A DNA stretch of 64,000 nucleotides from Iphione sp. A-MEVVRFRX5 (Eukaryota), in the NCBI GenBank assembly GCA_976226885.1, contig OZ320319.1, positions 68,758,001 through 68,822,000 on the forward strand. The letters run 5' to 3'. Shown here piece after piece: positions 14,106 to 49,884 of the stretch (positions within the stretch are counted from its first letter, which is position 1; each line of letters opens with the position of its first letter). Below the pieces are notes generated by a model. It ran no database searches and had not been told where the DNA came from. It worked only from the letters and a program-made list of their open reading frames with translations. The position numbers and the translations under genes were made by a program.

Positions 14106-15571
14106 TTATCTGGAGATGAAGCTTGATAATATACAGAGCATCTTCGATAGGAGGAGATCACATCCATTTTGTTAGTTGTCGGCTTATTTGGACCCGGGCC
14201 CTGGAGCGCTCACCTCCCTCCGGCGCTATCGCAGTGTCACATGTTGATCAAATTGCCTGCTCACAATGGGACAATGAGGTCGCTGGCAGTTGGCTGGGAC
14301 TTGTGAAATGGGAGTCGAGGCCCTGCAGCGGCCAGCACTAACCCGTTCTGTGATGTCTAATGGATCTTCATTCACCCTCCCGTAATAAGGCAATTTTATC
14401 GCCATAAAGATCTATCCGTGCCTACTGGGATTTGCCGATTTGTACCCCAAAGGACAAACACCTATTTAGAGGCAGACCAATGAATGTCCCTGTGAGGGCC
14501 TTGAATGCGATTAGACGTAATCGATTGCGCACTGAGCAATGAAAGTGTCATCAAAATCAAATAATCTTAACTCACTCTCTATTTCAAAGAAAATAATTAA
14601 CTGGTTTTCTTCCGTTGCTCACGGTACTGCTCCCAGTGGAAACGGACACTGTTGGGTGCTTTCTTTCGACGTATTGACGAAGTAATATGCAGGAACACAC
14701 CCTTTTTTAATAGGTCGAAAAAGGATACCCCCTCTCTATTAAACGCATTGAAAACCAAGGGGCTCTTCCGACTACGTGAGCTCCTCGGAGCGGTTCTGCA
14801 CCCCATGCAATGCCATAGAGCACAGACATCATGCGGAACACAATCATATTCATTCTAGCGTAATATTTAACTAGGACATGTAATTTACAAAGGAACTGTT
14901 TTCTCATACTCTAAAGTACAATAGAAACTGAAGCATCCCTGACTGAACCTTTCTTTCGTTTTATTGGGAAGTCATATGTAATATAAGCTGCAGAATTTGG
15001 TTTCTCAGAGCTTAATATCTTTAAAAAATATTTCAGAAGTCAACCGTCAGATGATGTCAGTTAAATGCCTTCAGTGTTTCATCTGTTATTAATACTGATC
15101 TCAAAGTATTTCAAAGAGAGCCGTGATGCAGGATATAATTGTGTACAATATGTTAGGGTATTTTTTTGCATGCAAGCCAACTTATGTACCTATAAGACCA
15201 TGTGAATTACCACAGATGCACAGCAATTCCTCTTATCGGAAGGTCTGCCATCTTATAATAATCATCAACACAACTGAGATGGGTGCAATATTTTCTCATT
15301 CTTCTATTCCTGAACTGATATTCTATTATTTACTATGCACTTTTATCCATCTGCTGTTCTCCTTTCTAATTAGTTTATGTTCTTGGGTTATTTATGGTTT
15401 TTTAACACTCTCCTGTTACCAAAACAAATCTTAAATCATGTTAGATTGTGATGGTTTGTGCATATTGTAATAATTGCTGGATATGTAAGGCTTTATGCCA
15501 TATTCTCCTTTTCCAGTGAAAAAATGTTATTTGGTCATATTGTACTTTTGACGAATAATCTCAAAAAAAGG

Positions 15572-15582
15572 AAGATGGCGGC
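15572..15582 (+). promoter_or_regulatory. YY1-type motif at the LINE 5' end (putative internal Pol II promoter / initiator)
   Basis: AAGATGGCGGC matches the YY1 consensus. It lies at the inferred element start, ~65 nt upstream of the ORF1 ATG, as with the YY1 site near the 5' end of mammalian L1. Confidence 0.5.
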
Positions 15583-15636
15583 CGAGTAAGACACTTATCG
15601 TTTAGGCTCCGTATAAGTAATCGTGATACAGAAGTC

Positions 15637-17073
15637 ATGCCAAGGCAACCACGAACAAGCTCAGTATCCAGGCAGGGTAGTACCCCTAGAGGGCACACCC
15701 AAGTCCTTCGATCGATGTCATCGAGCATGAATTTTGAGAAAAATGCCAACACTGAGGAGGTGAGCGATAATGGGGGCAACATAGGGCATGATCAGCGGGA
15801 AAGCCGGCGTCAATCGGAGAAGGGTGACGCTGTCGGCATCAGTGACACTGACACTAACGCTGTCAATGCTGTCAATGCTGGTGAGTTGTCTGCTATTGCG
15901 ATGTTACAGGACGTAATCTCTAAGCAGAAGAACATCATTGACAGCTTGTCCCAAGAGATATCTCAACTAAAGCAACATGTGAAGGATGAGGTAAGCGCTC
16001 TGAAAAGTGAAATATCTGCGTTGAGAATTGAAAATGGGAACTTACTGAGACAGTGTGAGAAATCTTGTATGGAGCTTGGTGACAGTGTCATCGCCAAGGT
16101 AGAAATTGTGTCCCAGAAGGTAGCGAGACTGGATTATGATGTCTCGCGTCGTGAACTCCAAGACCGCGGCAGGCAGGTCATTATTGACGGAATTCCATGT
16201 GCTGAAGAACGCAATATTTTCAATTTTGTCAGCAAGCTTCTTCACCACACTGCCGCTGTCAATCGCAAGAGGATTCGTGACGTCGCTGTCATAGCGGACA
16301 ACGGGAAGATTCTGAGAGTCCGGGCGTCGCTGGCTGACGTAGAAACTCGGTCACAAGTGCTGAAGGGACGCTCAAAATTAGCCAAGCATGAGGAATTTCA
16401 AGATATCTTCATCAAAGAAGACATTGCACCGAGGGCCATGGAAGCACATCGTCGCCAGACTCGCATCGCTGCGTCTGCTAGGAAACTAGGCAAACGCGCG
16501 ACTGTCCGAGGACTGGACTTGCTTCTAGAGGGCGAATGCTACACACCGCTTGACGAAGAGTTACTATCGGATGATGTCAAACCGTCACAAAATTCAACGA
16601 ATGAAGGAGACAAGACGTATGTATTCAACAATGATGCGCAAGGCTTTTCTCCGATGGAAGAATCACCAATGTCGTTTGATGGAGATTATTACCCATGTCT
16701 CGAAACAGCGTATCAAGCATGTAAAGTGCGCGTATGCAAGGATATGCGTGCGCTACGGGATATCAACAACAGCAAGTCTGGCTACGAAGCGCGCCGTTTT
16801 GGTAGGCAAATTGCAACTAATCAGGAATGGACAGATTCATCAGAGGTAATGCTCAAAGATCTCGTGTCGTGCAAGTATAGGCTTAACCCGCACCTTCTAG
16901 GGAACCTGATGAAATCGGGTAATAAAGAGATCTTCTACTGCGATCCGGACACTATTTTAGGTTGTAGGCCGAATGCAGACCAGCAACCCGGTAATGAGAA
17001 TGAGGTGGCTGGAAACAACTTACTGGGGAAGGTGTTACTGAGTTTTCGTGACTCTTTCATTGCTGCGACTTAG
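15637..17073 (+). CDS. LINE ORF1p: disordered N-terminus, coiled coil, L1-ORF1p-like RRM/CTD, C-terminal NADAR (YbiA-like) domain
   Basis: 478 aa intact ORF. Heptad region LQDVISKQKNIIDSLSQEISQLKQ...KVARLDYDV. RRM entry motif RQVIIDGIP and CTD motif IFIKEDIAP...GKRATVRGLDLLLEGECY. From aa ~328 (nt 16618): GFSPMEESPMSFDGDYYPCLETAYQACK...SGYEARRFGR...EW...DLVSCKYRLNPHLLGNLMKSGNKEIFYCDPDTILG...GNNLLGKVLLSFRD, colinear with YbiA/NADAR motifs. Confidence 0.9.
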   Translation: MPRQPRTSSVSRQGSTPRGHTQVLRSMSSSMNFEKNANTEEVSDNGGNIGHDQRESRRQSEKGDAVGISDTDTNAVNAVNAGELSAIAMLQDVISKQKNIIDSLSQEISQLKQHVKDEVSALKSEISALRIENGNLLRQCEKSCMELGDSVIAKVEIVSQKVARLDYDVSRRELQDRGRQVIIDGIPCAEERNIFNFVSKLLHHTAAVNRKRIRDVAVIADNGKILRVRASLADVETRSQVLKGRSKLAKHEEFQDIFIKEDIAPRAMEAHRRQTRIAASARKLGKRATVRGLDLLLEGECYTPLDEELLSDDVKPSQNSTNEGDKTYVFNNDAQGFSPMEESPMSFDGDYYPCLETAYQACKVRVCKDMRALRDINNSKSGYEARRFGRQIATNQEWTDSSEVMLKDLVSCKYRLNPHLLGNLMKSGNKEIFYCDPDTILGCRPNADQQPGNENEVAGNNLLGKVLLSFRDSFIAAT

Positions 17074-17424
17074 GCAATACTTAAGTTGAATAACCTGACA
17101 TCAGCTTTTGATAGTTGTGTGTTCCTTACTTGACATGATGTATTTGTGAGGGTTTTTCGCTGTGTGACATGTCTAGGGTCAGTCTCGGTTTTGTTATGCT
17201 ATTGACAACTTTATATGATTGTCTTTGTGCTTTTGCCACTACTCTTTTACCTCAATGCCTCACAGCACCACTTCAGATACTTCCTAATTTAGTGACTTTT
17301 TGAGTTAAATCCTATTCCAGAATATGCCATCCGTAACCGGCCTGAGCTGGGAGATGGCCATAGGCTAAGGGTTATCATCATCTGTGATCTGAGGACGCAC
17401 CGTGCAGTATCAAGACTGAGGAGG

Positions 17425-18033
17425 ATGGCCCTGCCCCCAGTTACGATATATGTTGTTATGATGCGAAGAGCTACATATCGACGGGTACTGCGCTGGAGTA
17501 TGATGTTTGACTGGCAAGCTTTCGACTTTGCCCTACTGCTGACTGGTACCTATGACTGCATTACTCGTGAGTGTTACCAATGGACCTTGACCCATCAAGA
17601 TGCTCATCGGTACAACAACAACTTACGAGCCACCTTAGTGAGGCTATCTGAGGTGTTTATGGGGCAGGATAGGTCAGGTGCTCGGCTTATCTGCGCACCG
17701 ATGCCTGGTGTAATGCTACGCAGATGTGAGCCTGACCTTTTCTACGATGACCCGTATCAACAAACAAGATTGAATGATCTTCTCCGTGTGCACAACTTGG
17801 CGTGTTGTCAAACTGGGAGGCGTTATGGGCTGTGTCCGCCGCGTTTGGATCGACAAGTCAACTATCTGATTGATGGTTTCTTCGGACTGGACTCTGATGC
17901 CCTGCTCTTAGATGGTATCGATGTCGAGGTATACGTAGCTAGAGACTGGGCTGACGAAATTGCCCGGTTTCTTTTTGAGGCCATGGCTTTGTATGGCCCA
18001 TCCCTATTTTACTCCAGGACTATTCGCATTTGA
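17425..18033 (+). CDS. LINE middle ORF: SGNH/GDSL hydrolase-fold protein, predicted catalytically inactive
   Basis: 202 aa from the first ATG, but the frame is open from 17296. Block I RVIIICDL (17368-17391; canonical GDS), block II MRRAT (canonical PGAT), block III LLLTGTYD (canonical GxND), block V LLDGIDVEVYVARDWADEIARFL (canonical DGxH...W). Confidence 0.7.
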   Translation: MALPPVTIYVVMMRRATYRRVLRWSMMFDWQAFDFALLLTGTYDCITRECYQWTLTHQDAHRYNNNLRATLVRLSEVFMGQDRSGARLICAPMPGVMLRRCEPDLFYDDPYQQTRLNDLLRVHNLACCQTGRRYGLCPPRLDRQVNYLIDGFFGLDSDALLLDGIDVEVYVARDWADEIARFLFEAMALYGPSLFYSRTIRI

Positions 18034-18836
18034 GGAGAAAGTACCGTGTTCTCAACCATCACCTGTAAGATAATATATGATCTCCTATAACCTAACGTCC
18101 ACAGAAGTATCTTGGACAGCTTTATCTATCCTTGACTCCAAGTGCAGTATCTCTACACTGAGATTAGCTACTTCCATTTAGCTACCATGTGAGAAGAACA
18201 TTTATTTTTATATTTTCCCATTAGTGATCTTGAGCTCTGCTCGTGTCTCTTGACGTTCTTTGCTTAAGCCTTACCTGACTTAATACTAGTAGTGGTGTGT
18301 TTCTTGACTTGTTTCTACTTCTTTTTGGACGGTTGTCATGTACCAAGCTGAGTTTCTACTGAGTTAAAGACTTTATTTTTTGGTGTTCTAATTTAGATGA
18401 CCTGCTTGTGAACTGAACTGTGATTCAGATAACCGTATTTGACTTGATCTGTCGTTATGCTGAGATACAATACCGGATAGTGTTCTAAACCCTTATCATA
18501 TCACATAGATGTTTTCCTTTTAATATATACTCTTGAACTACACTCTTTCTTACATAATAGCTGAACTGATCTGCTCATCCAATATTTTCCGTTACTATGT
18601 TTACTTTGTAACAAACTGTTCATTTTGTGTGCCGAAACGGTGAGGTCTAGTACCAGACTTCTGGGTGTGCTAGCTCTGACTATGGCAAGGTGATATGTGG
18701 TGACCAATAGTCCTTGTTTAACAGTCATGAGGTGTTACGTGTGTTGTTCCTAAGTGTTGTTGACGTGCTGTATATATGTGATGAGATATAATGTGAGTGG
18801 TTGTGTGAATAACAGGAGCCTAGTAGACAGCTAACT

Positions 18837-21287
18837 ATGGTAATCCATGTGGTCAGCTATAATGTGCGTAGTTTGGTTAAGAAGATGTGGTCTTTGATTG
18901 ACCTAATCAACCAAGAAAATGTAGACCTGCTGTGCCTAACTGAAACTTGGCTACATGCAGGAATCTCTGACAGGGTTGTGTCCATTCCAGGATTCAAGTT
19001 AATTCGCCGGGATAGGGCATGTAAATCCGGGAAAAGGGGAGGTGGGGTAGCTATCTATTACAGAGATGGGATAGAGCTTCAATCTCTAATTGATTGTGAC
19101 TTCCCAGACCTTGATTCATGCTGCGAGACCATAGCAGCGAGATTTAAGGTGGGCAATCATCGGCCATTGGAAGTCCTTAATGTCTACCGCCCTCCTAACG
19201 ACAAGGTATCCGACTCGATGAAACTTGTGGAGTCAGCCTGCAAGACGTTAGGACGGGTGGGGAGATCGGATCGAGTCATAGTTGGGGATTTCAATTATGA
19301 TTATGTGACCCCAGGTAGGGCTGGCATGGGCATAGCCAACATCATATCTGGGCTTGGTTATGTCCAAATCATTAAGGACTCAACAATGACAACAAACATG
19401 CATTGCCTGGACCATTGTTGGGTGTCGTTTGATGGTCACAATGGCGGTGAAGTCCTGAACTGGTACCTAAGTGATCATCTTCCTGTCAGCTTAGTACTCA
19501 AGAAGGGCTCTCCGAAACTGATCAAGAAGACTATCACTGTCAGAAACTGGAGCAAAGTGGATATCACTGAGCTTCATGATGAGATGCGGCGTGAGGCTAT
19601 CTCGACAGCTGTAGACCATGAAGTTGCTTGGGACAACTTCTATGCTGCCCTGTGGGCGAAACTCCAGGTACGGTGCCCACCTAGGGAGGTCAGGGTTGAT
19701 GATGAGTCAACCGTAACTCCGATCAATGAGGGAGTCCGTGAACTCCTCAAAGATCGGCAATATTTCCACCAGAAATGGCGGAAATATGGGTGTCCTGATA
19801 GTCTCCGGATTTTCCGCTTCTTGAACCAAAAGGCCAAGAGAGCTCTGCGGGACTGCAGGAGAGAGCACTGGAGAAAGAGAATTTCTGAGGCAGGCCAGAA
19901 TATGACCAAACTATGGGGCTGTCTTAATGATGCCTTGGGTAGGAAATCCAGAGATGATATCCTACCAGACAGGGAAGAATGGAAGGCCAAACATGGCGTG
20001 GAGCCTGCTGAATCTTTCAACAAATACTTTGTTGATGAGGTTGAGTCACTAGTCAACCGTAAAGGTCCAGTAGGTAATGTGTTTGACTTCTGTGGTGGCG
20101 ATGGATTCGAAATCAAACCTCCCACTCCACTTGAAGTCAGAAAGCTAGTCAATGACATCAAGATTTCTAAGTCCTCTGGCCTCCATGGTGTACCGACCAA
20201 GGTTCTCAAGCCACTCCTACAACTATGTCCAGATTTTCTGTCCTGGTTGTTTAACAGGATCTACGTAACAGGTCGATTTCCTAGTGCGTGGAAAGTGGCG
20301 CGGGTAACACCGGTGCACAAGAGAGGGGATGTCAATCAGCTGGGTCAGTACCGCCCTGTCTCGATCTTGCCACTACCGGGCAAGATCTGTGAGCGCTGGT
20401 TCAGCGGGGAACTGGTGAAACAGTTAGAGGCACGCGGCTGCTTCGCGGATGAACAACACGGATTCCGTGAGCGACGTGGCACAGAGACAGCGATCGTCAA
20501 ACTGGTCAACTCAGCGGCTGACATAATCAACCGGGGAGCGTATGCGTGCCTTATTACATTCGATCTGAAGAAGGCGTTTGACCTGGTCCCCCATGTGACT
20601 GTGGTCAAACGCCTTAAAGACATGGGGGCTGGTCCCAGGCTGCGTAGGCTAGTGGCATCTTACCTTAGTGGAAGACAGCAGTTTGTAAGATGCTACGGTA
20701 TTGAGTCACGCACTCTGAAGTTGAGACAAGGTGTGCCACAAGGATCAATTTTTGGTCCGGTGGCGTTTAATCTTGCAATCAATACAGTGGTGGATGTGCT
20801 CCCTGTCAGCCAGGTGTCCGTATTGTATGCCGACGACTTGTCCGTCTTGACTTATGCAAAAGACCTACTCAGGCTGAGGAGCATAGTCAGTCAGACCCTG
20901 TCTGCAGTGTCTACGTGGTGTGCTAGAGAGGGCCTCCTTTTGAGTGAGCATAAGTGTGCCTACTGCCCCATTGGGAAATCTGTGGGCATCCCTCTTGATG
21001 TCTCACTCAACAACAACGAACTTGGGATGGAGACATCAGTGACACTCTTGGGCCATGTTGTGGACGGTCGTCTAATGATGAAAGGTGAGGTCCAAAGAAC
21101 AAAAGCCAAAACTTGGCAGTGCGCTGCGGAGATAGGGAGAACCAAGAGTTTTCTTCCATTTGGGGCTAGATTACAGCTTTTTAAGGCCATGGTGCTAGTC
21201 CACTACCACTATGCCGCAGCCACCTGGTTTGCACTGACCAAATCGTGCGTAGTGGGACTCCAGGTTCACCTGAACCGATGTGCGTGA
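18837..21287 (+). CDS. LINE ORF2p: APE endonuclease + reverse transcriptase, truncated in this copy by TGA at 21285-21287
   Basis: APE motifs SYNVRSL, LCLTETW, RGGGVAIY, VYRPP, VGDFN, LDH, SDHLPV (nt ~18837-19500). RT motifs YRPVSILP, QHGFR, FDLKKAFDLVPH, GVPQGSIFGP, LYADD. Confidence 0.95.
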   Translation: MVIHVVSYNVRSLVKKMWSLIDLINQENVDLLCLTETWLHAGISDRVVSIPGFKLIRRDRACKSGKRGGGVAIYYRDGIELQSLIDCDFPDLDSCCETIAARFKVGNHRPLEVLNVYRPPNDKVSDSMKLVESACKTLGRVGRSDRVIVGDFNYDYVTPGRAGMGIANIISGLGYVQIIKDSTMTTNMHCLDHCWVSFDGHNGGEVLNWYLSDHLPVSLVLKKGSPKLIKKTITVRNWSKVDITELHDEMRREAISTAVDHEVAWDNFYAALWAKLQVRCPPREVRVDDESTVTPINEGVRELLKDRQYFHQKWRKYGCPDSLRIFRFLNQKAKRALRDCRREHWRKRISEAGQNMTKLWGCLNDALGRKSRDDILPDREEWKAKHGVEPAESFNKYFVDEVESLVNRKGPVGNVFDFCGGDGFEIKPPTPLEVRKLVNDIKISKSSGLHGVPTKVLKPLLQLCPDFLSWLFNRIYVTGRFPSAWKVARVTPVHKRGDVNQLGQYRPVSILPLPGKICERWFSGELVKQLEARGCFADEQHGFRERRGTETAIVKLVNSAADIINRGAYACLITFDLKKAFDLVPHVTVVKRLKDMGAGPRLRRLVASYLSGRQQFVRCYGIESRTLKLRQGVPQGSIFGPVAFNLAINTVVDVLPVSQVSVLYADDLSVLTYAKDLLRLRSIVSQTLSAVSTWCAREGLLLSEHKCAYCPIGKSVGIPLDVSLNNNELGMETSVTLLGHVVDGRLMMKGEVQRTKAKTWQCAAEIGRTKSFLPFGARLQLFKAMVLVHYHYAAATWFALTKSCVVGLQVHLNRCA

Positions 21288-21635
21288 ATGGCCTTGCAGG
21301 AGAAAGACTTTCTCTCAGCTGCCACCATGCAGAGGAAGTTTAAGATACCGCGCGTTAGTGATCTGATCTGGATCCATGGTATCCGTGCCGTGCATAATCA
21401 AATGCACTTAGGACTGATTAGGTCTGACCAGAGGAGTCAGACCAGAAGAGGTGCTCAATGGAGAGGCCTGACTGAGCGTCCGAGAAGCTCGAGATATGCA
21501 AGGTCTCTTAGCTATCTCGGTGTGAGGACGTGGAGTGATCTACCTGGGACACTCAAAGCAAGAAGGTCTCTGACCACTCGGGCCCTGGTAAATTACTTGC
21601 CAAACGCTGGGTCTGTTGGAGACATGGTTGGTTGA
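21288..21635 (+). CDS. In-frame C-terminal continuation of LINE ORF2 after the premature stop
   Basis: Same frame, immediately after TGA. RPRSSRYARSLSYLGVRTWSDLPGTLK...L matches the conserved CR1/L2 ORF2 C-terminal motif (PR....G.RSFSY.G..LWN.LP). Confidence 0.85.
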   Translation: MALQEKDFLSAATMQRKFKIPRVSDLIWIHGIRAVHNQMHLGLIRSDQRSQTRRGAQWRGLTERPRSSRYARSLSYLGVRTWSDLPGTLKARRSLTTRALVNYLPNAGSVGDMVG

Positions 21636-22290
21636 TCTACATGAGAAATGGTATGTGTCTGCTGGAGAATTTCCATAGAATATTTGCTGTGTGGTGTGGT
21701 AATGTGTGCACTTTCTGTTATAAATGCATGTACATTATAGATGGGATTGTAGGAGCTTTTTGTCAACACTGTGGAGATGTTGGTGCCAGTAGTGTACAGG
21801 TATATTGACGGCCAACCTCGTACGGTGACATTATATGTTAGTGTCGTGAAGATGTATGCTCTGCCTATTTTTTCGGTAATTCATTGGAATACTCTGGAGG
21901 GATCAGGATTGATGTTTCTTTGAGATCCCAGATGGTTATTTTTCATGCTGTAATACCCAGGATGACAGTACTATACCAAGTTGTCTGTGGTCGCGCTGGG
22001 ATGTGACATGATGAACACAGACTCTAAGCGTTTATCTTACACAGTTTGCTAGTGCGTTATGATGTCTTAGACTGCTGTATTCTCACTGTACCGATAGCAA
22101 CACTTTAAAAGCCATGGCATGATGACATTTTATTTTCCGCAAGAAGACCCTCGGTTGCACCAAAATATTCTTGTATATATGATGGTAGTTGCTATGATTT
22201 CCCACTGCTATTTCCCTTACTTGTATTTTCGCATGTTTTCTTGTCATTTCAACCAACGAAAGCTCTGATGTAATTTTGGAGAAATGTTGA

Positions 22291-22316
22291 AATAAAATCA
22301 AAATCAAAATCAAAAA
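22291..22316 (+). repeat. LINE 3' tail: AATAAA fused to (AAAATC)x3
   Basis: AATAAAATCAAAATCAAAATCAAAAA. Short tandem-repeat tails are characteristic of CR1/L2-group LINEs. Confidence 0.8.
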
Positions 22317-47400: not shown

Positions 47401-49884
47401 CTAGCTCCAGCTGCGACGTCCGAAAAGGATTTTGGAGAAGGCCTGCCTGAAGTCCCTGTTGAAAATGGTGTACGTTACAGGGTTCAGCGCCGAGTTGCAG
47501 TAACCCGCCCAGAAGAACACGGCGAAGACCAGCCCGGGCACGGACGCCCCTGTCAGAGACGACACGAGGTAGGTAGAGAAGAAGGGAAGCCAACACAGAA
47601 TGAAGGTCGCCATGATAATGCCCAGCACGATGAAGGCGCGCCTTTCCTTGGCCCGAGCTATACGCCGCTTCTGCTTCTCCGGGTCATCGAGCGTCCGCTT
47701 GTGGTGCTTTTCCCGCCCCTCCAGCTTGTTCTTGCGGATCTGGATGTTCAGTCTGGAGAAGGAAGCTGGCGTTAGGACTATGGCCTTCTTGTTGGTCTGC
47801 TCGTTGTTGAGCTGCTCCGATTCCTCATGACCGCTGCTTATCTCCTCCCCGAGATGCTCGTCCTCCCCTGGAGGTTGGCAGGGACCCCCCGAGCCGTCAC
47901 CTCCGCCACCTTGATCGCCGTCCGTTACCCGAGCGCTGCCATCAGGCTCCACGCTTTGGGCCCTTCCGGGACTGTGATTATTGTTCTCCACTGGGAGCTT
48001 CTCACTCTCACGTTGCGAGTCGCTCTCGAGCTGAGAATCTTCTAATAATGGCTTCATGTTCTCCTCAGTGGAGCTACGATTGCGCGGCACGTGGCGGTAT
48101 CCGTTGAATTTGGCACGGGCGCTACGCGTACTGGGCGAGTCGGACGTGGAGTCGGTGTCCTCACTGAAGTGGATGTGTTTTCCCACGTTGAGCCGACGCG
48201 CCGGACCTTTGATGGGCGACTCGCACGCCGAGTCCGTATCGTCGGACAGAAGCTTCTTCTTCTCGTCCAGCAAGTGCACGTGCAAACCCTGAGCGGGAAC
48301 TGCCAGGTGGTGGGTGTCGGCGTCCTCCTTGTGATGTTCGCGGTCAGTGGGAGATGTCTGGCCCGATTCCGGTCGAGAACAGACGTCCTCGGCGATATCA
48401 TCGAACGAGCCAAACTCCTTCTCCACCAGGAGGTTGTTGGCTTTACAGGCCTTGTCTCGCGTAGGTGTGCTGAAGCTTGTGGTCGTGTTTGTGGTTGTCG
48501 ACGTGGACTTTCCGTTGTCGATCACCGGTGGCGGGTGCTGCTGCTGGTGCTGATGGAGCTGTTGCTGTTGCTGCTTCTGGGCCTTTTTCAGGCCACGCCG
48601 GGCGCGAGAGCGGGCCGCAAGATAGATCTTGAAGTAGACGACAACCATGACAACCAGCGGGATGTAGAAGGAGCCAAGCGTGGAGTAAACAACATAACCC
48701 GTGTCCTCACTGAGCACACAGAGTGGCTTGCCATATTTCATTGGCTGCGGCCGCTTCCAGCCAACGAGTGGCGGGAAGCAGATGATCATGGACAAAACCC
48801 AGACGAGAGCGATCATGAGGATAGCGCGCCGTTTGGTGCGTTGCTTGACATAACTGATAGCCCGCGTGATGCTCCAGAAGCGGTCCAGCGAGATGAGACA
48901 GAGGTTCATGATGGAGGCAGTACACAGCAAGACATCTGTGGCGAGCCACAGTTCACAGAGGATGTTACCGAAGTACCAGTAACCCATGAGTTCATTGGCC
49001 AGCGAGAATGGCATGATGAGCAATCCTACGAGTAGGTCGCTGACGGCGAGAGAGGCAATGAACCAGTTCTGAACTGCCTTGAGATTGCGGTCTATGCAAA
49101 TGGCCACCACCACAAGCCCGTTCCCCACGATGATGATAATCATTAGTAAGGTGACGAAGATGGACGTCACTATAACATGTTCTGTAGAATAGCCACTGAG
49201 GTAGCCCTCAGGTATGAAGTCCAGCGTACTGTTATCGCTGCTGTCGTTTGCCAGGGCAGGTAGCGTATCAACAGTCCATAACGGCGGCGAGCTAGTAGTG
49301 CTGTTTGGTACGAGGTGGGCGGCTGCTGTCCTGGCAAGGCCGTCCAGGGTCACCTGAGGGGGAAGCGTGTCCCAGATATCACTGTTGTGGTCCTGGTAGA
49401 AAGGCCGAGGCAGGAAGCCAAGGCGTGTCAGGTTCGGCTTCTTGACATAGCCAACCTCCGGTAAAAGGACGGCATCTTCCGGCGGCCGCCCGTCGCCGCC
49501 CGCGGCGAGGGACCCGTCTGCGCCGAGAGACCCAAGCACAGCGCCACCCAATGGGCGATGTGGCAACTCCGGGTCTGGACTTGGTGAGAAAACCGATGAA
49601 ATCCTGGCTGTCGACGTGTCCTCCGTCTCATTGAGCATTCGCGACAGAAGTATGCCATTTTGCGTCGTGATTTCTTCGGAGGTGTGCGATACGCCTGTCA
49701 GTGTTATACCATCTAGTCTGTCCGAGGAATTCAAATCTTCTCGCTGTGTTTTTTCACTTGTGTCATCTATGGTGACAGCCCCGTCCAAGAAGCGAGTCAC
49801 TTCCTCTGTTACACCAGTCCGAGATGTGGCATTGGCAGAGAGAAATTTCTGCCACAAGGGAACACGAGTTTTATTAGTTTCCAT
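47401..49884 (-). CDS. ADRA2: Class A biogenic-amine GPCR, alpha2-adrenergic-like (Octalpha2R-like in protostomes); intronless CDS, 827 aa
   Basis: Seven TMs. TM2 SLAVSDLLVGLLIMPFSLANELMGYWYFG; TM3 amine-binding Asp (LATDVLLCTAS) and DRF; TM5 GYVVYSTLGSFYIP...KIYLAARSRARR; TM6 CWLPFF; TM7 FFWAGYCNSALNPVTYTIFNRDFRQAF. All match the alpha2-type family. Strong Kozak ACCATGG. The symbol is family-level only. Confidence 0.92.
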   Translation of the reverse strand: METNKTRVPLWQKFLSANATSRTGVTEEVTRFLDGAVTIDDTSEKTQREDLNSSDRLDGITLTGVSHTSEEITTQNGILLSRMLNETEDTSTARISSVFSPSPDPELPHRPLGGAVLGSLGADGSLAAGGDGRPPEDAVLLPEVGYVKKPNLTRLGFLPRPFYQDHNSDIWDTLPPQVTLDGLARTAAAHLVPNSTTSSPPLWTVDTLPALANDSSDNSTLDFIPEGYLSGYSTEHVIVTSIFVTLLMIIIIVGNGLVVVAICIDRNLKAVQNWFIASLAVSDLLVGLLIMPFSLANELMGYWYFGNILCELWLATDVLLCTASIMNLCLISLDRFWSITRAISYVKQRTKRRAILMIALVWVLSMIICFPPLVGWKRPQPMKYGKPLCVLSEDTGYVVYSTLGSFYIPLVVMVVVYFKIYLAARSRARRGLKKAQKQQQQQLHQHQQQHPPPVIDNGKSTSTTTNTTTSFSTPTRDKACKANNLLVEKEFGSFDDIAEDVCSRPESGQTSPTDREHHKEDADTHHLAVPAQGLHVHLLDEKKKLLSDDTDSACESPIKGPARRLNVGKHIHFSEDTDSTSDSPSTRSARAKFNGYRHVPRNRSSTEENMKPLLEDSQLESDSQRESEKLPVENNNHSPGRAQSVEPDGSARVTDGDQGGGGDGSGGPCQPPGEDEHLGEEISSGHEESEQLNNEQTNKKAIVLTPASFSRLNIQIRKNKLEGREKHHKRTLDDPEKQKRRIARAKERRAFIVLGIIMATFILCWLPFFSTYLVSSLTGASVPGLVFAVFFWAGYCNSALNPVTYTIFNRDFRQAFSKILFGRRSWS

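Follow-up and report, generated by a model that had tools for sequence, protein, structure and literature searches.

Organization of the element and of its ORF1 protein

The window, a 64,000-nt stretch of contig OZ320319.1 of Iphione sp. A-MEVVRFRX5, carries on its forward strand a full-length LINE of ~6.75 kb and probable CR1/L2 type (15570..22315, both ends being approximate by a few bases). Its genes, all in the same orientation, are ORF1 (15637..17073), which encodes a 478-aa protein with a disordered N-terminus, a coiled coil, an RRM, a C-terminal domain (CTD) and a NADAR domain; a third gene, whose predicted exon 2 (17321..18033, 237 codons) encodes an SGNH/GDSL hydrolase fold; and ORF2 (18837..21635), with an APE endonuclease and a reverse transcriptase (RT) recognized by Pfam (PF03372 and PF00078). 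At the 5' end there is a conserved motif with a four-codon upstream ORF (15572..15590), which is the likely promoter of the element and is presumably YY1-like, and at the 3' end an AATAAA with a short tandem-repeat tail (22291..22315). Both ends agree with those of young families, and in several copies a motif similar to the one at the 5' end precedes the NADAR domain by ~1.0-1.6 kb. The LINE is the sole copy of its own family that we found in the Iphione sp. genome; it has no close sibling, its nearest relatives having 66-70% nucleotide identity across long matches.

The original prediction had placed a NADAR domain in the ORF1 of a LINE, and the Pfam matches to APE and RT downstream of ORF1 bear out that context; together with 5'-truncated copies and the 3' tail, they identify the element as a LINE. 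In the window copy ORF2 is interrupted by a premature TGA at 21285-21287, with the frame running on to 21635, and the intact ORF2s of relatives are ~916-943 aa in length. The spacer 5' of ORF2 (18034-18836 in the window) and its equivalents are long (roughly 0.6-1.5 kb) and AT-rich, with an ATG in a strong Kozak context. No conserved splice acceptor for ORF2 was found in them.

Several features point to the CR1/L2 group as the likely home of this LINE: the tandem-repeat tails, the absence of a zinc-finger Pfam match in four intact ORF2s, an RT identity of 30-36% to outside RTs (a bird protein among them), and RT motifs that we take to be CR1/L2-like. Members of the Tx1 clade are marked by an L1/Tx1-type RT and a C-terminal zinc knuckle. 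No Pfam match to a Tx1-type zinc knuckle was obtained in the four intact ORF2s, and our RT tree holds no Tx1 reference. By its tail, and by its RT motifs as we take them, the window element appears to be of CR1/L2 type and would differ in this from the oyster Tx1 elements considered below.

An AlphaFold model of ORF1p, built from a 13-sequence alignment (mean pLDDT 69.7), has a helix at aa 83-178 (the coiled coil, 15883..16170), RRM-type strands at aa 180-261 and a C-terminal domain, with pLDDT <50 at aa 292-311. The RRM and CTD (16174..16566, ending near aa 310 and starting at aa 180) were assigned to the L1 type based on a Foldseek match to human L1 ORF1p (2YKO, E 7.9e-4), so that the coiled coil and RRM/CTD expected ahead of the NADAR domain are both supported. 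The layout of coiled coil, single RRM and CTD is that of L1-type (type II) ORF1 proteins, the CTD being modelled at low confidence, and Pfam Transposase_22 gave no match in the window ORF1. The NADAR/YbiA domain occupies aa 330-473 (16624..17055) and has a remodelled active site. Its identity was confirmed by PF08719, which matches these residues at E 1.2e-18 and 68.4 bits (gathering score 35.1) over profile positions 13-161 of 163, and by structure, since the two top-ranked Foldseek matches of the model were the Phytophthora nicotianae NADAR (8BAU, E 5.8e-6) and YbiA (2B3W, E 6.5e-6). The score against TIGR02464, the riboflavin N-glycosidase equivalog, was 57 bits, or 60.7 when the domain was scored by itself, and thus under its cut-off of 73.7.

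Spread and selection of the NADAR-ORF1 families

The Iphione sp. genome (1.18 Gb) was searched with the window NADAR domain, giving 2977 candidates, of which 150 were scored and 40 fetched with flanks. All 150 match the domain; leaving aside the window's own copy, their identity to it is 38-59%, and the genome holds hundreds of diverged NADAR copies. The ORF1 core, the NADAR domain and a further conserved ORF are present in 40/40 of the fetched clade loci, NADAR being present across the family, and APE and RT follow downstream on the same strand, completing the full order, in 38 of them. One young family has six full-length and six 5'-truncated copies at 99-100% identity; elements of this layout have therefore transposed recently. 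The domain is under purifying selection, as judged from pairwise dN/dS values of 0.07-0.27 and a pooled value of 0.16 over six pairs that is the same with or without the codons of the candidate cis-elements described below. The corresponding range for the RRM-CTD core is 0.04-0.15.

A second search of the same genome, with PF08719, found 4416 candidate NADAR sites, of which 150 were scored, and 20 canonical-NADAR loci from it were fetched with flanks as a comparison set. Thirty loci of this search were viewed: one (L071) is a NADAR of cellular type (176 bits) and the rest resemble LINE ORF1 domains. In another locus (L037:2554-3378) the NADAR domain is tandemly duplicated within ORF1. A quick RT tree of 61 rows (18 from the window clade, 18 of the 20 canonical loci and 25 from outside, with a midpoint root for drawing only) unites the window clade with an SH-aLRT of 100, and two families with the canonical Glu adjoin it.

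Outside this genome, a word search with the ORF1 alignment found no homologs, whereas a full HMMER profile scan of 1.84 billion proteins gave 6100 matches at E<=0.001. The best 150 of these 6100 all carry the NADAR domain, and most align across much of ORF1. Eight of the outside ORF1-NADAR proteins (P0009, P0028, P0035, P0048, P0067, P0072, P0078, and P0125) have C-terminal extensions of 160-350 aa, none of which matched Pfam or esterase profiles. A scan of metagenomes with outside ORF1s gave 62 loci, of which one covers ORF1 beyond NADAR and none has an esterase, APE or RT.

The fusion of NADAR to ORF1 is therefore widespread, and it is also already known: the novelty that had been supposed for it does not hold, as a YbiA-family NADAR was reported in 2025 for the ORF1 of Tx1 LINEs in Crassostrea gigas, and another for Ectocarpus Gypsy Pol (PMC12477816). 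The oyster elements share with ours a YbiA-family NADAR in a LINE ORF1, for which a role in processing of the RNA intermediate was suggested (PMC12477816). In the text compared, that account makes no mention of a third ORF, of splicing or of lost catalytic residues (PMC12477816).

The third gene and its predicted first exon

The original prediction missed the premature stop in ORF2 and, more notably, a conserved third ORF between ORF1 and ORF2 (frame 17296-18033 in the window), whose equivalents are found in 40/40 clade loci and 20/20 canonical-NADAR loci. Pfam gave no match for the clade ORF, nor for seven canonical middle ORFs at E<=0.01. The AlphaFold model of the third protein (pTM 0.84) has Foldseek top matches that are all GDSL/SGNH proteins and a superposition on VIA with Z 13.6 and rmsd 3.6 over 172 aligned residues. 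Clade and canonical middle ORFs are homologous, based on an hhalign probability of 98.5%, and dN/dS of the third gene is 0.035-0.16.

The canonical middle ORFs are ~220 aa long, have a Met near their start in 20/20 loci and retain a Ser-Asp-His triad in 16 of 19 that could be aligned. In the window protein the nucleophile Ser is replaced by Leu and there is no His. Across the clade the triad is found at the aligned block V in 0/32 members, and 7/32 have a Ser and a D-x-x-H seven residues earlier. A second lineage, represented by L105, L106, L108, and L113, has likewise no nucleophile Ser and His in its middle ORF, with a NADAR that appears mostly canonical; this is an independent loss. A non-catalytic SGNH protein is known in the OSK domain of Oskar (5A4A), with which the third protein superposes at Z 12.0 and rmsd 3.5 over 167 residues, and the C. 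elegans protein SNA-3, which works in an RNP, has a NADAR domain 1 without catalytic residues. Both are host proteins and the likeness is one of analogy only.

Outside homologs of the clade third protein were sought by word search, with none found, and in metagenome contigs, where 107 pattern matches yielded 0 confirmed. In the ESM Atlas the neighbours of a canonical member are eukaryotic clusters without a name and others with partial GDSL annotation, which we regard as a lead only. No esterase fused to ORF1-NADAR was detected among 150 outside proteins by profile or among 29 longer ones by Pfam.

Esterases are known from other retrotransposons. In CR1, L2 and RTEX elements (ZfL2-1, 4C1B) the esterase lies within an ORF1p described as having no RRM domains, and a survey of the Jockey group assigns ORF1p of the esterase type to vertebrate subgroups only (PMC3905857, PMC4120745). 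These proteins resemble the third protein in being SGNH hydrolases of non-LTR retrotransposons encoded upstream of ORF2 (PMC3905857, PMC4120745); in sequence, the third protein matches 4C1B weakly (E 0.21). They differ from it in that the window esterase has a gene to itself, next to an ORF1 of the RRM type that is complete. Rotifer LTR retrotransposons have a GDSL esterase as ORF3, and the ORF3s of LTR elements are typically expressed from spliced messages, as env-type ORF3s are, so that an extra esterase gene as third ORF is common to both systems; the rotifer elements are of the LTR kind, however, and the text compared does not describe a first exon lying inside another gene (PMC5408684). 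In the published literature that we searched, with Repbase and Dfam lying outside the search, we met with no LINE of three ORFs in which the esterase is separate or in which a spliced exon is nested. A separate esterase-fold gene beside an RRM-type ORF1 was likewise not found in that literature.

The conserved part of the clade middle ORF begins directly behind a pyrimidine tract and YAG, and lacks a conserved ATG. We predict that its start lies instead in a coding mini-exon within the NADAR coding region (16827..16845), which opens with an ATG that overlaps the Trp398 codon out of frame, comprises six codons and one base, and ends at a splice donor. A 475-nt GT-AG intron (16846..17320) would then span the remainder of ORF1 together with the spacer, the window signals being the ATG at 16827, the donor at 16846 and the acceptor at 17320. 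These signals were examined in 40 sequences, comprising the window and 39 of the 40 fetched loci (L042 was dropped because its domain is incomplete), among which there are five near-duplicates; since clade copies are related, the counts that follow are non-independent trials. The hidden ATG is present at the Trp398 codon in 40/40, with ~30% expected, even though the residue ahead of the Trp is of nine different kinds. In all 40 the 19-nt stretch up to the donor is open, there is a purine at -3 and GAG precedes the donor, which reads GAG|GT in 37 and GAG|GC in three related copies of one lineage. In these three (L044, L045, and L046) the change replaces Val by Ala and the other signals are kept, which is what a GC-AG intron would show. 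YAG stands at the acceptor in 39/40, with a pyrimidine tract of 0.70 vs. 0.49 at other YAG sites, and the mini-exon joins exon 2 in frame. At the level of sequence the donor, tract, acceptor and in-frame join thus have the properties of an intron, with a predicted length of 270-810 nt across the clade, and we infer that the third gene of the window clade is spliced from the hidden exon.

A scan of ORF1 codons found Val404, which follows an invariant Glu, encoded by GTA in 25/25. By comparison, the canonical control families have an ATG at the Trp codon in 5/20 and GAG|GT in 0/20. All 18 testable loci among 24 new ones fit the hidden exon, although the E-[VA] pattern by which the site was located in part presupposes the donor GT. 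We also looked for a donor of phase 1 in the ORF1 frame, and none is conserved; the donor is of phase 0 in ORF1 and of phase 1 in the nested frame. No spliced retrocopy was present among the 12 near-identical copies searched of one young family. The quick RT tree suggests that the three-gene layout may predate the intron and the catalytic changes. In L101 and L120, sister families whose NADAR is canonical and whose esterase has a Met of its own, the Trp codon already carries the ATG, and L101 also shows a weak GT where the donor would be; they are possibly the starting state for the intron.

Synonymous sites in ORF1 are constrained at z>=5 in 16 columns, 15 of which fall at aa 279-289, 358-371, and 397-404; in the region of the first of these blocks the count is 6/144 columns, and in ORF2 it is 0/590 (214 columns of APE and 376 of RT). 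Block 1 (aa 279-289, 16471..16503) is a candidate cis-element and block 2 (aa 358-371, 16708..16749) a candidate internal promoter. Each holds a GCG and, ~15-25 nt further on, an A-rich stretch and a CGCG-type run. Block 2 is followed by the predicted 5' leader of the third-gene mRNA (16750..16826), which is poor in ATG. Within 50 nt upstream of the hidden start an ATG occurs in 3/34 copies vs. ~61% expected, and synonymous opportunities for an ATG are used in 3/33 cases near the hidden start vs. 91/147 further upstream. This avoidance spans ~80 nt, with much of it coming from one codon pair, and kinship among copies inflates its significance. Together, the synonymous constraint and the avoidance of upstream ATGs suggest an internal promoter.

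The NADAR pocket and the proposed expression of three proteins

In the P. nicotianae NADAR the contacts with ADP-ribose have been mapped, and the acid equivalent to E125 is required for hydrolysis, which its mutation abolishes (PMC11543638). By HMM alignment to 8BAU, Tyr434 of the window protein (16936..16938) corresponds to E125 and Leu441 to W133. Residues were counted in 33 aligned clade members and in the 150 best outside homologs. The E125 equivalent is Tyr in 33/33 clade members vs. Glu in 144/150 outside homologs, in a family that tolerates Glu, Asp or His at this position; that of W133, the Trp of D-x-x-W-G, is Leu in 27/33 vs. Trp, Phe or Tyr in 150/150, which confirms the loss of this Trp as first noticed. 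The equivalents of R93 and D86 are lost as well. Other pocket residues are retained: E43 as E (33/33), K50 as K/R (33/33), W89 as W (33/33), and D130 as D (30/33), which in the window copy are Glu356, Lys363, Trp398, and Asp438. The R79 equivalent, an Arg after Gly, is Arg in the window copy, yet in only 11/33 across the clade. Measured against the YbiA subfamily, the window domain therefore has the E43/K50/W89/D130 set and lacks the Glu of the last strand and W133. The original claim that the conserved Glu, Lys, Arg and Asp are all kept stands for the first Glu, the Lys and the Asp, and for the Arg in this copy, and fails for the catalytic Glu of the last strand.

In fold the domain is close to YbiA and 8BAU (TM 0.67-0.68 by target length), and the four retained residues are common to all; the changes at E125, W133, R93, and D86 set it apart from these proteins and from the DarT1-linked NADARs. 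It also differs from them in being fused to an RNA chaperone. The proposal that the domain is an eraser of ADP-ribose has to be divided accordingly. It is plausible for the canonical NADAR-ORF1 families, in which the catalytic residues are kept (144/150 outside homologs; in the own-genome set, Glu in 16/20 and Trp or Phe in 20/20), and doubtful for the clade of the window copy, because the catalytic Glu has become Tyr and the Trp is lost.

Based on the splice and start signals, the three coding units under selection and the remodelled pocket, all of them demonstrable in the aligned sequences, the balance of probability leans slightly toward a three-protein LINE in which the clade NADAR is a non-hydrolysing binder and the third gene is nested, spliced and expressed from an internal transcript. 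A CR1/L2-group LINE belonging to a large radiation would encode ORF1p-NADAR, a separate protein with an SGNH-esterase fold and the APE-RT ORF2p. The ancestral NADAR would most likely have erased ADP-ribose on the RNA or cDNA of the element, in keeping with the original proposal, and most NADAR-ORF1 families still appear to be catalytically complete. In the window clade the replacement of Glu by Tyr and the loss of the phosphate-binding Trp would most likely leave a domain that binds nucleic acid, whether plain or ADP-ribosylated, or else a partner, without hydrolysis. The DNA encoding this domain would also provide the third gene with its promoter-like blocks, its leader, its start codon and its splice donor. 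A short capped internal RNA, arising from blocks 1 and 2, would be spliced to give the esterase-like protein, and the unspliced full-length RNA would provide both ORF1p and the template for transposition.

It is possible, though on present evidence unlikely, that the architecture and splicing are as above and the clade NADAR is still an active eraser, as originally proposed, with Asp436, two residues beyond Tyr434, substituting for the Glu and perhaps conferring another base specificity. Asp436 could replace the lost Glu in that it is near-invariant in the window clade alone (30/33 vs. 3/150 outside homologs) and DarT1-linked NADARs already use a displaced Asp (PMC11543638); the retained Glu356, Lys363, Trp398, and Asp438, the G-N-x-L-G motif, which is also kept, and the dN/dS of 0.16 would suit an enzyme, and NADARs act on RNA and DNA and on both G and C. 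Set against this are the loss of the E125, W133, R93, and D86 equivalents and the variability of that of R79. Nor was a base-modifying transferase identified in the host, where a search for Scabin/pierisin-like proteins gave no match, as did its control.

That the splice is real and the internal promoter is not seems improbable; the full-length RNA would then be spliced, cutting ORF1 within NADAR, and translation would reinitiate at the hidden ATG, from which it would follow, with the same low probability, that splicing toggles between ORF1p with NADAR and ORF1p without NADAR plus the esterase-like protein. The ORF1 frame does stop 0-47 codons past the junction (15 in the window) and the conserved blocks could be RNA elements, but the distance from stop to start is not conserved, and a strong Kozak context in 40/40 with ATG avoidance limited to ~80 nt fits scanning along a capped leader whose 5' end lies close by. 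Least probable, and largely refuted, is that the NADAR protein is a passenger kept mainly for its DNA signals, or that conserved residues give rise to the splice signals incidentally. The signals do overlap the conserved residues Trp398, Glu403, Val404, and Arg365, and clade-invariant Arg365, Glu403, and Val404 are probably fixed by the DNA signals rather than by protein function. However, dN/dS stays at 0.16 when signal codons are left out, the key bases are synonymous ones that selection on the protein does not fix (the A before TGG, GAG not GAA, and GTA), and the acceptor lies outside ORF1.

LINEs are described as having one or two ORFs, and an element replicating via RNA should lose any intron. 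We are evenly divided on whether this is a virus-like LINE with an essential spliced third gene, its signals lying in the synonymous sites of NADAR and both of its enzymes having become new binding modules on one branch, among thousands of intact sisters. If so, a selected intron and a nested first exon would mean that a LINE regulates spliced and unspliced RNA as retroviruses do, and that annotation by open reading frame overlooks whole genes in repeat libraries. The countering of host nucleic-acid ADP-ribosylation by a transposon has so far merely been suggested in print, and the genome offers a natural contrast between sister families with complete NADAR and esterase and a clade with both remodelled. 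While the NADAR finding is real but known, the part worth following is the three-gene LINE, in which a gene with a predicted intron would begin within the NADAR domain.

Elsewhere in the window, on the reverse strand, a single 827-aa ORF (47401-49884) encodes a rhodopsin-family GPCR with a long third loop (PF00001, 235 bits), which presumably resembles a biogenic-amine receptor and is an ordinary host gene.
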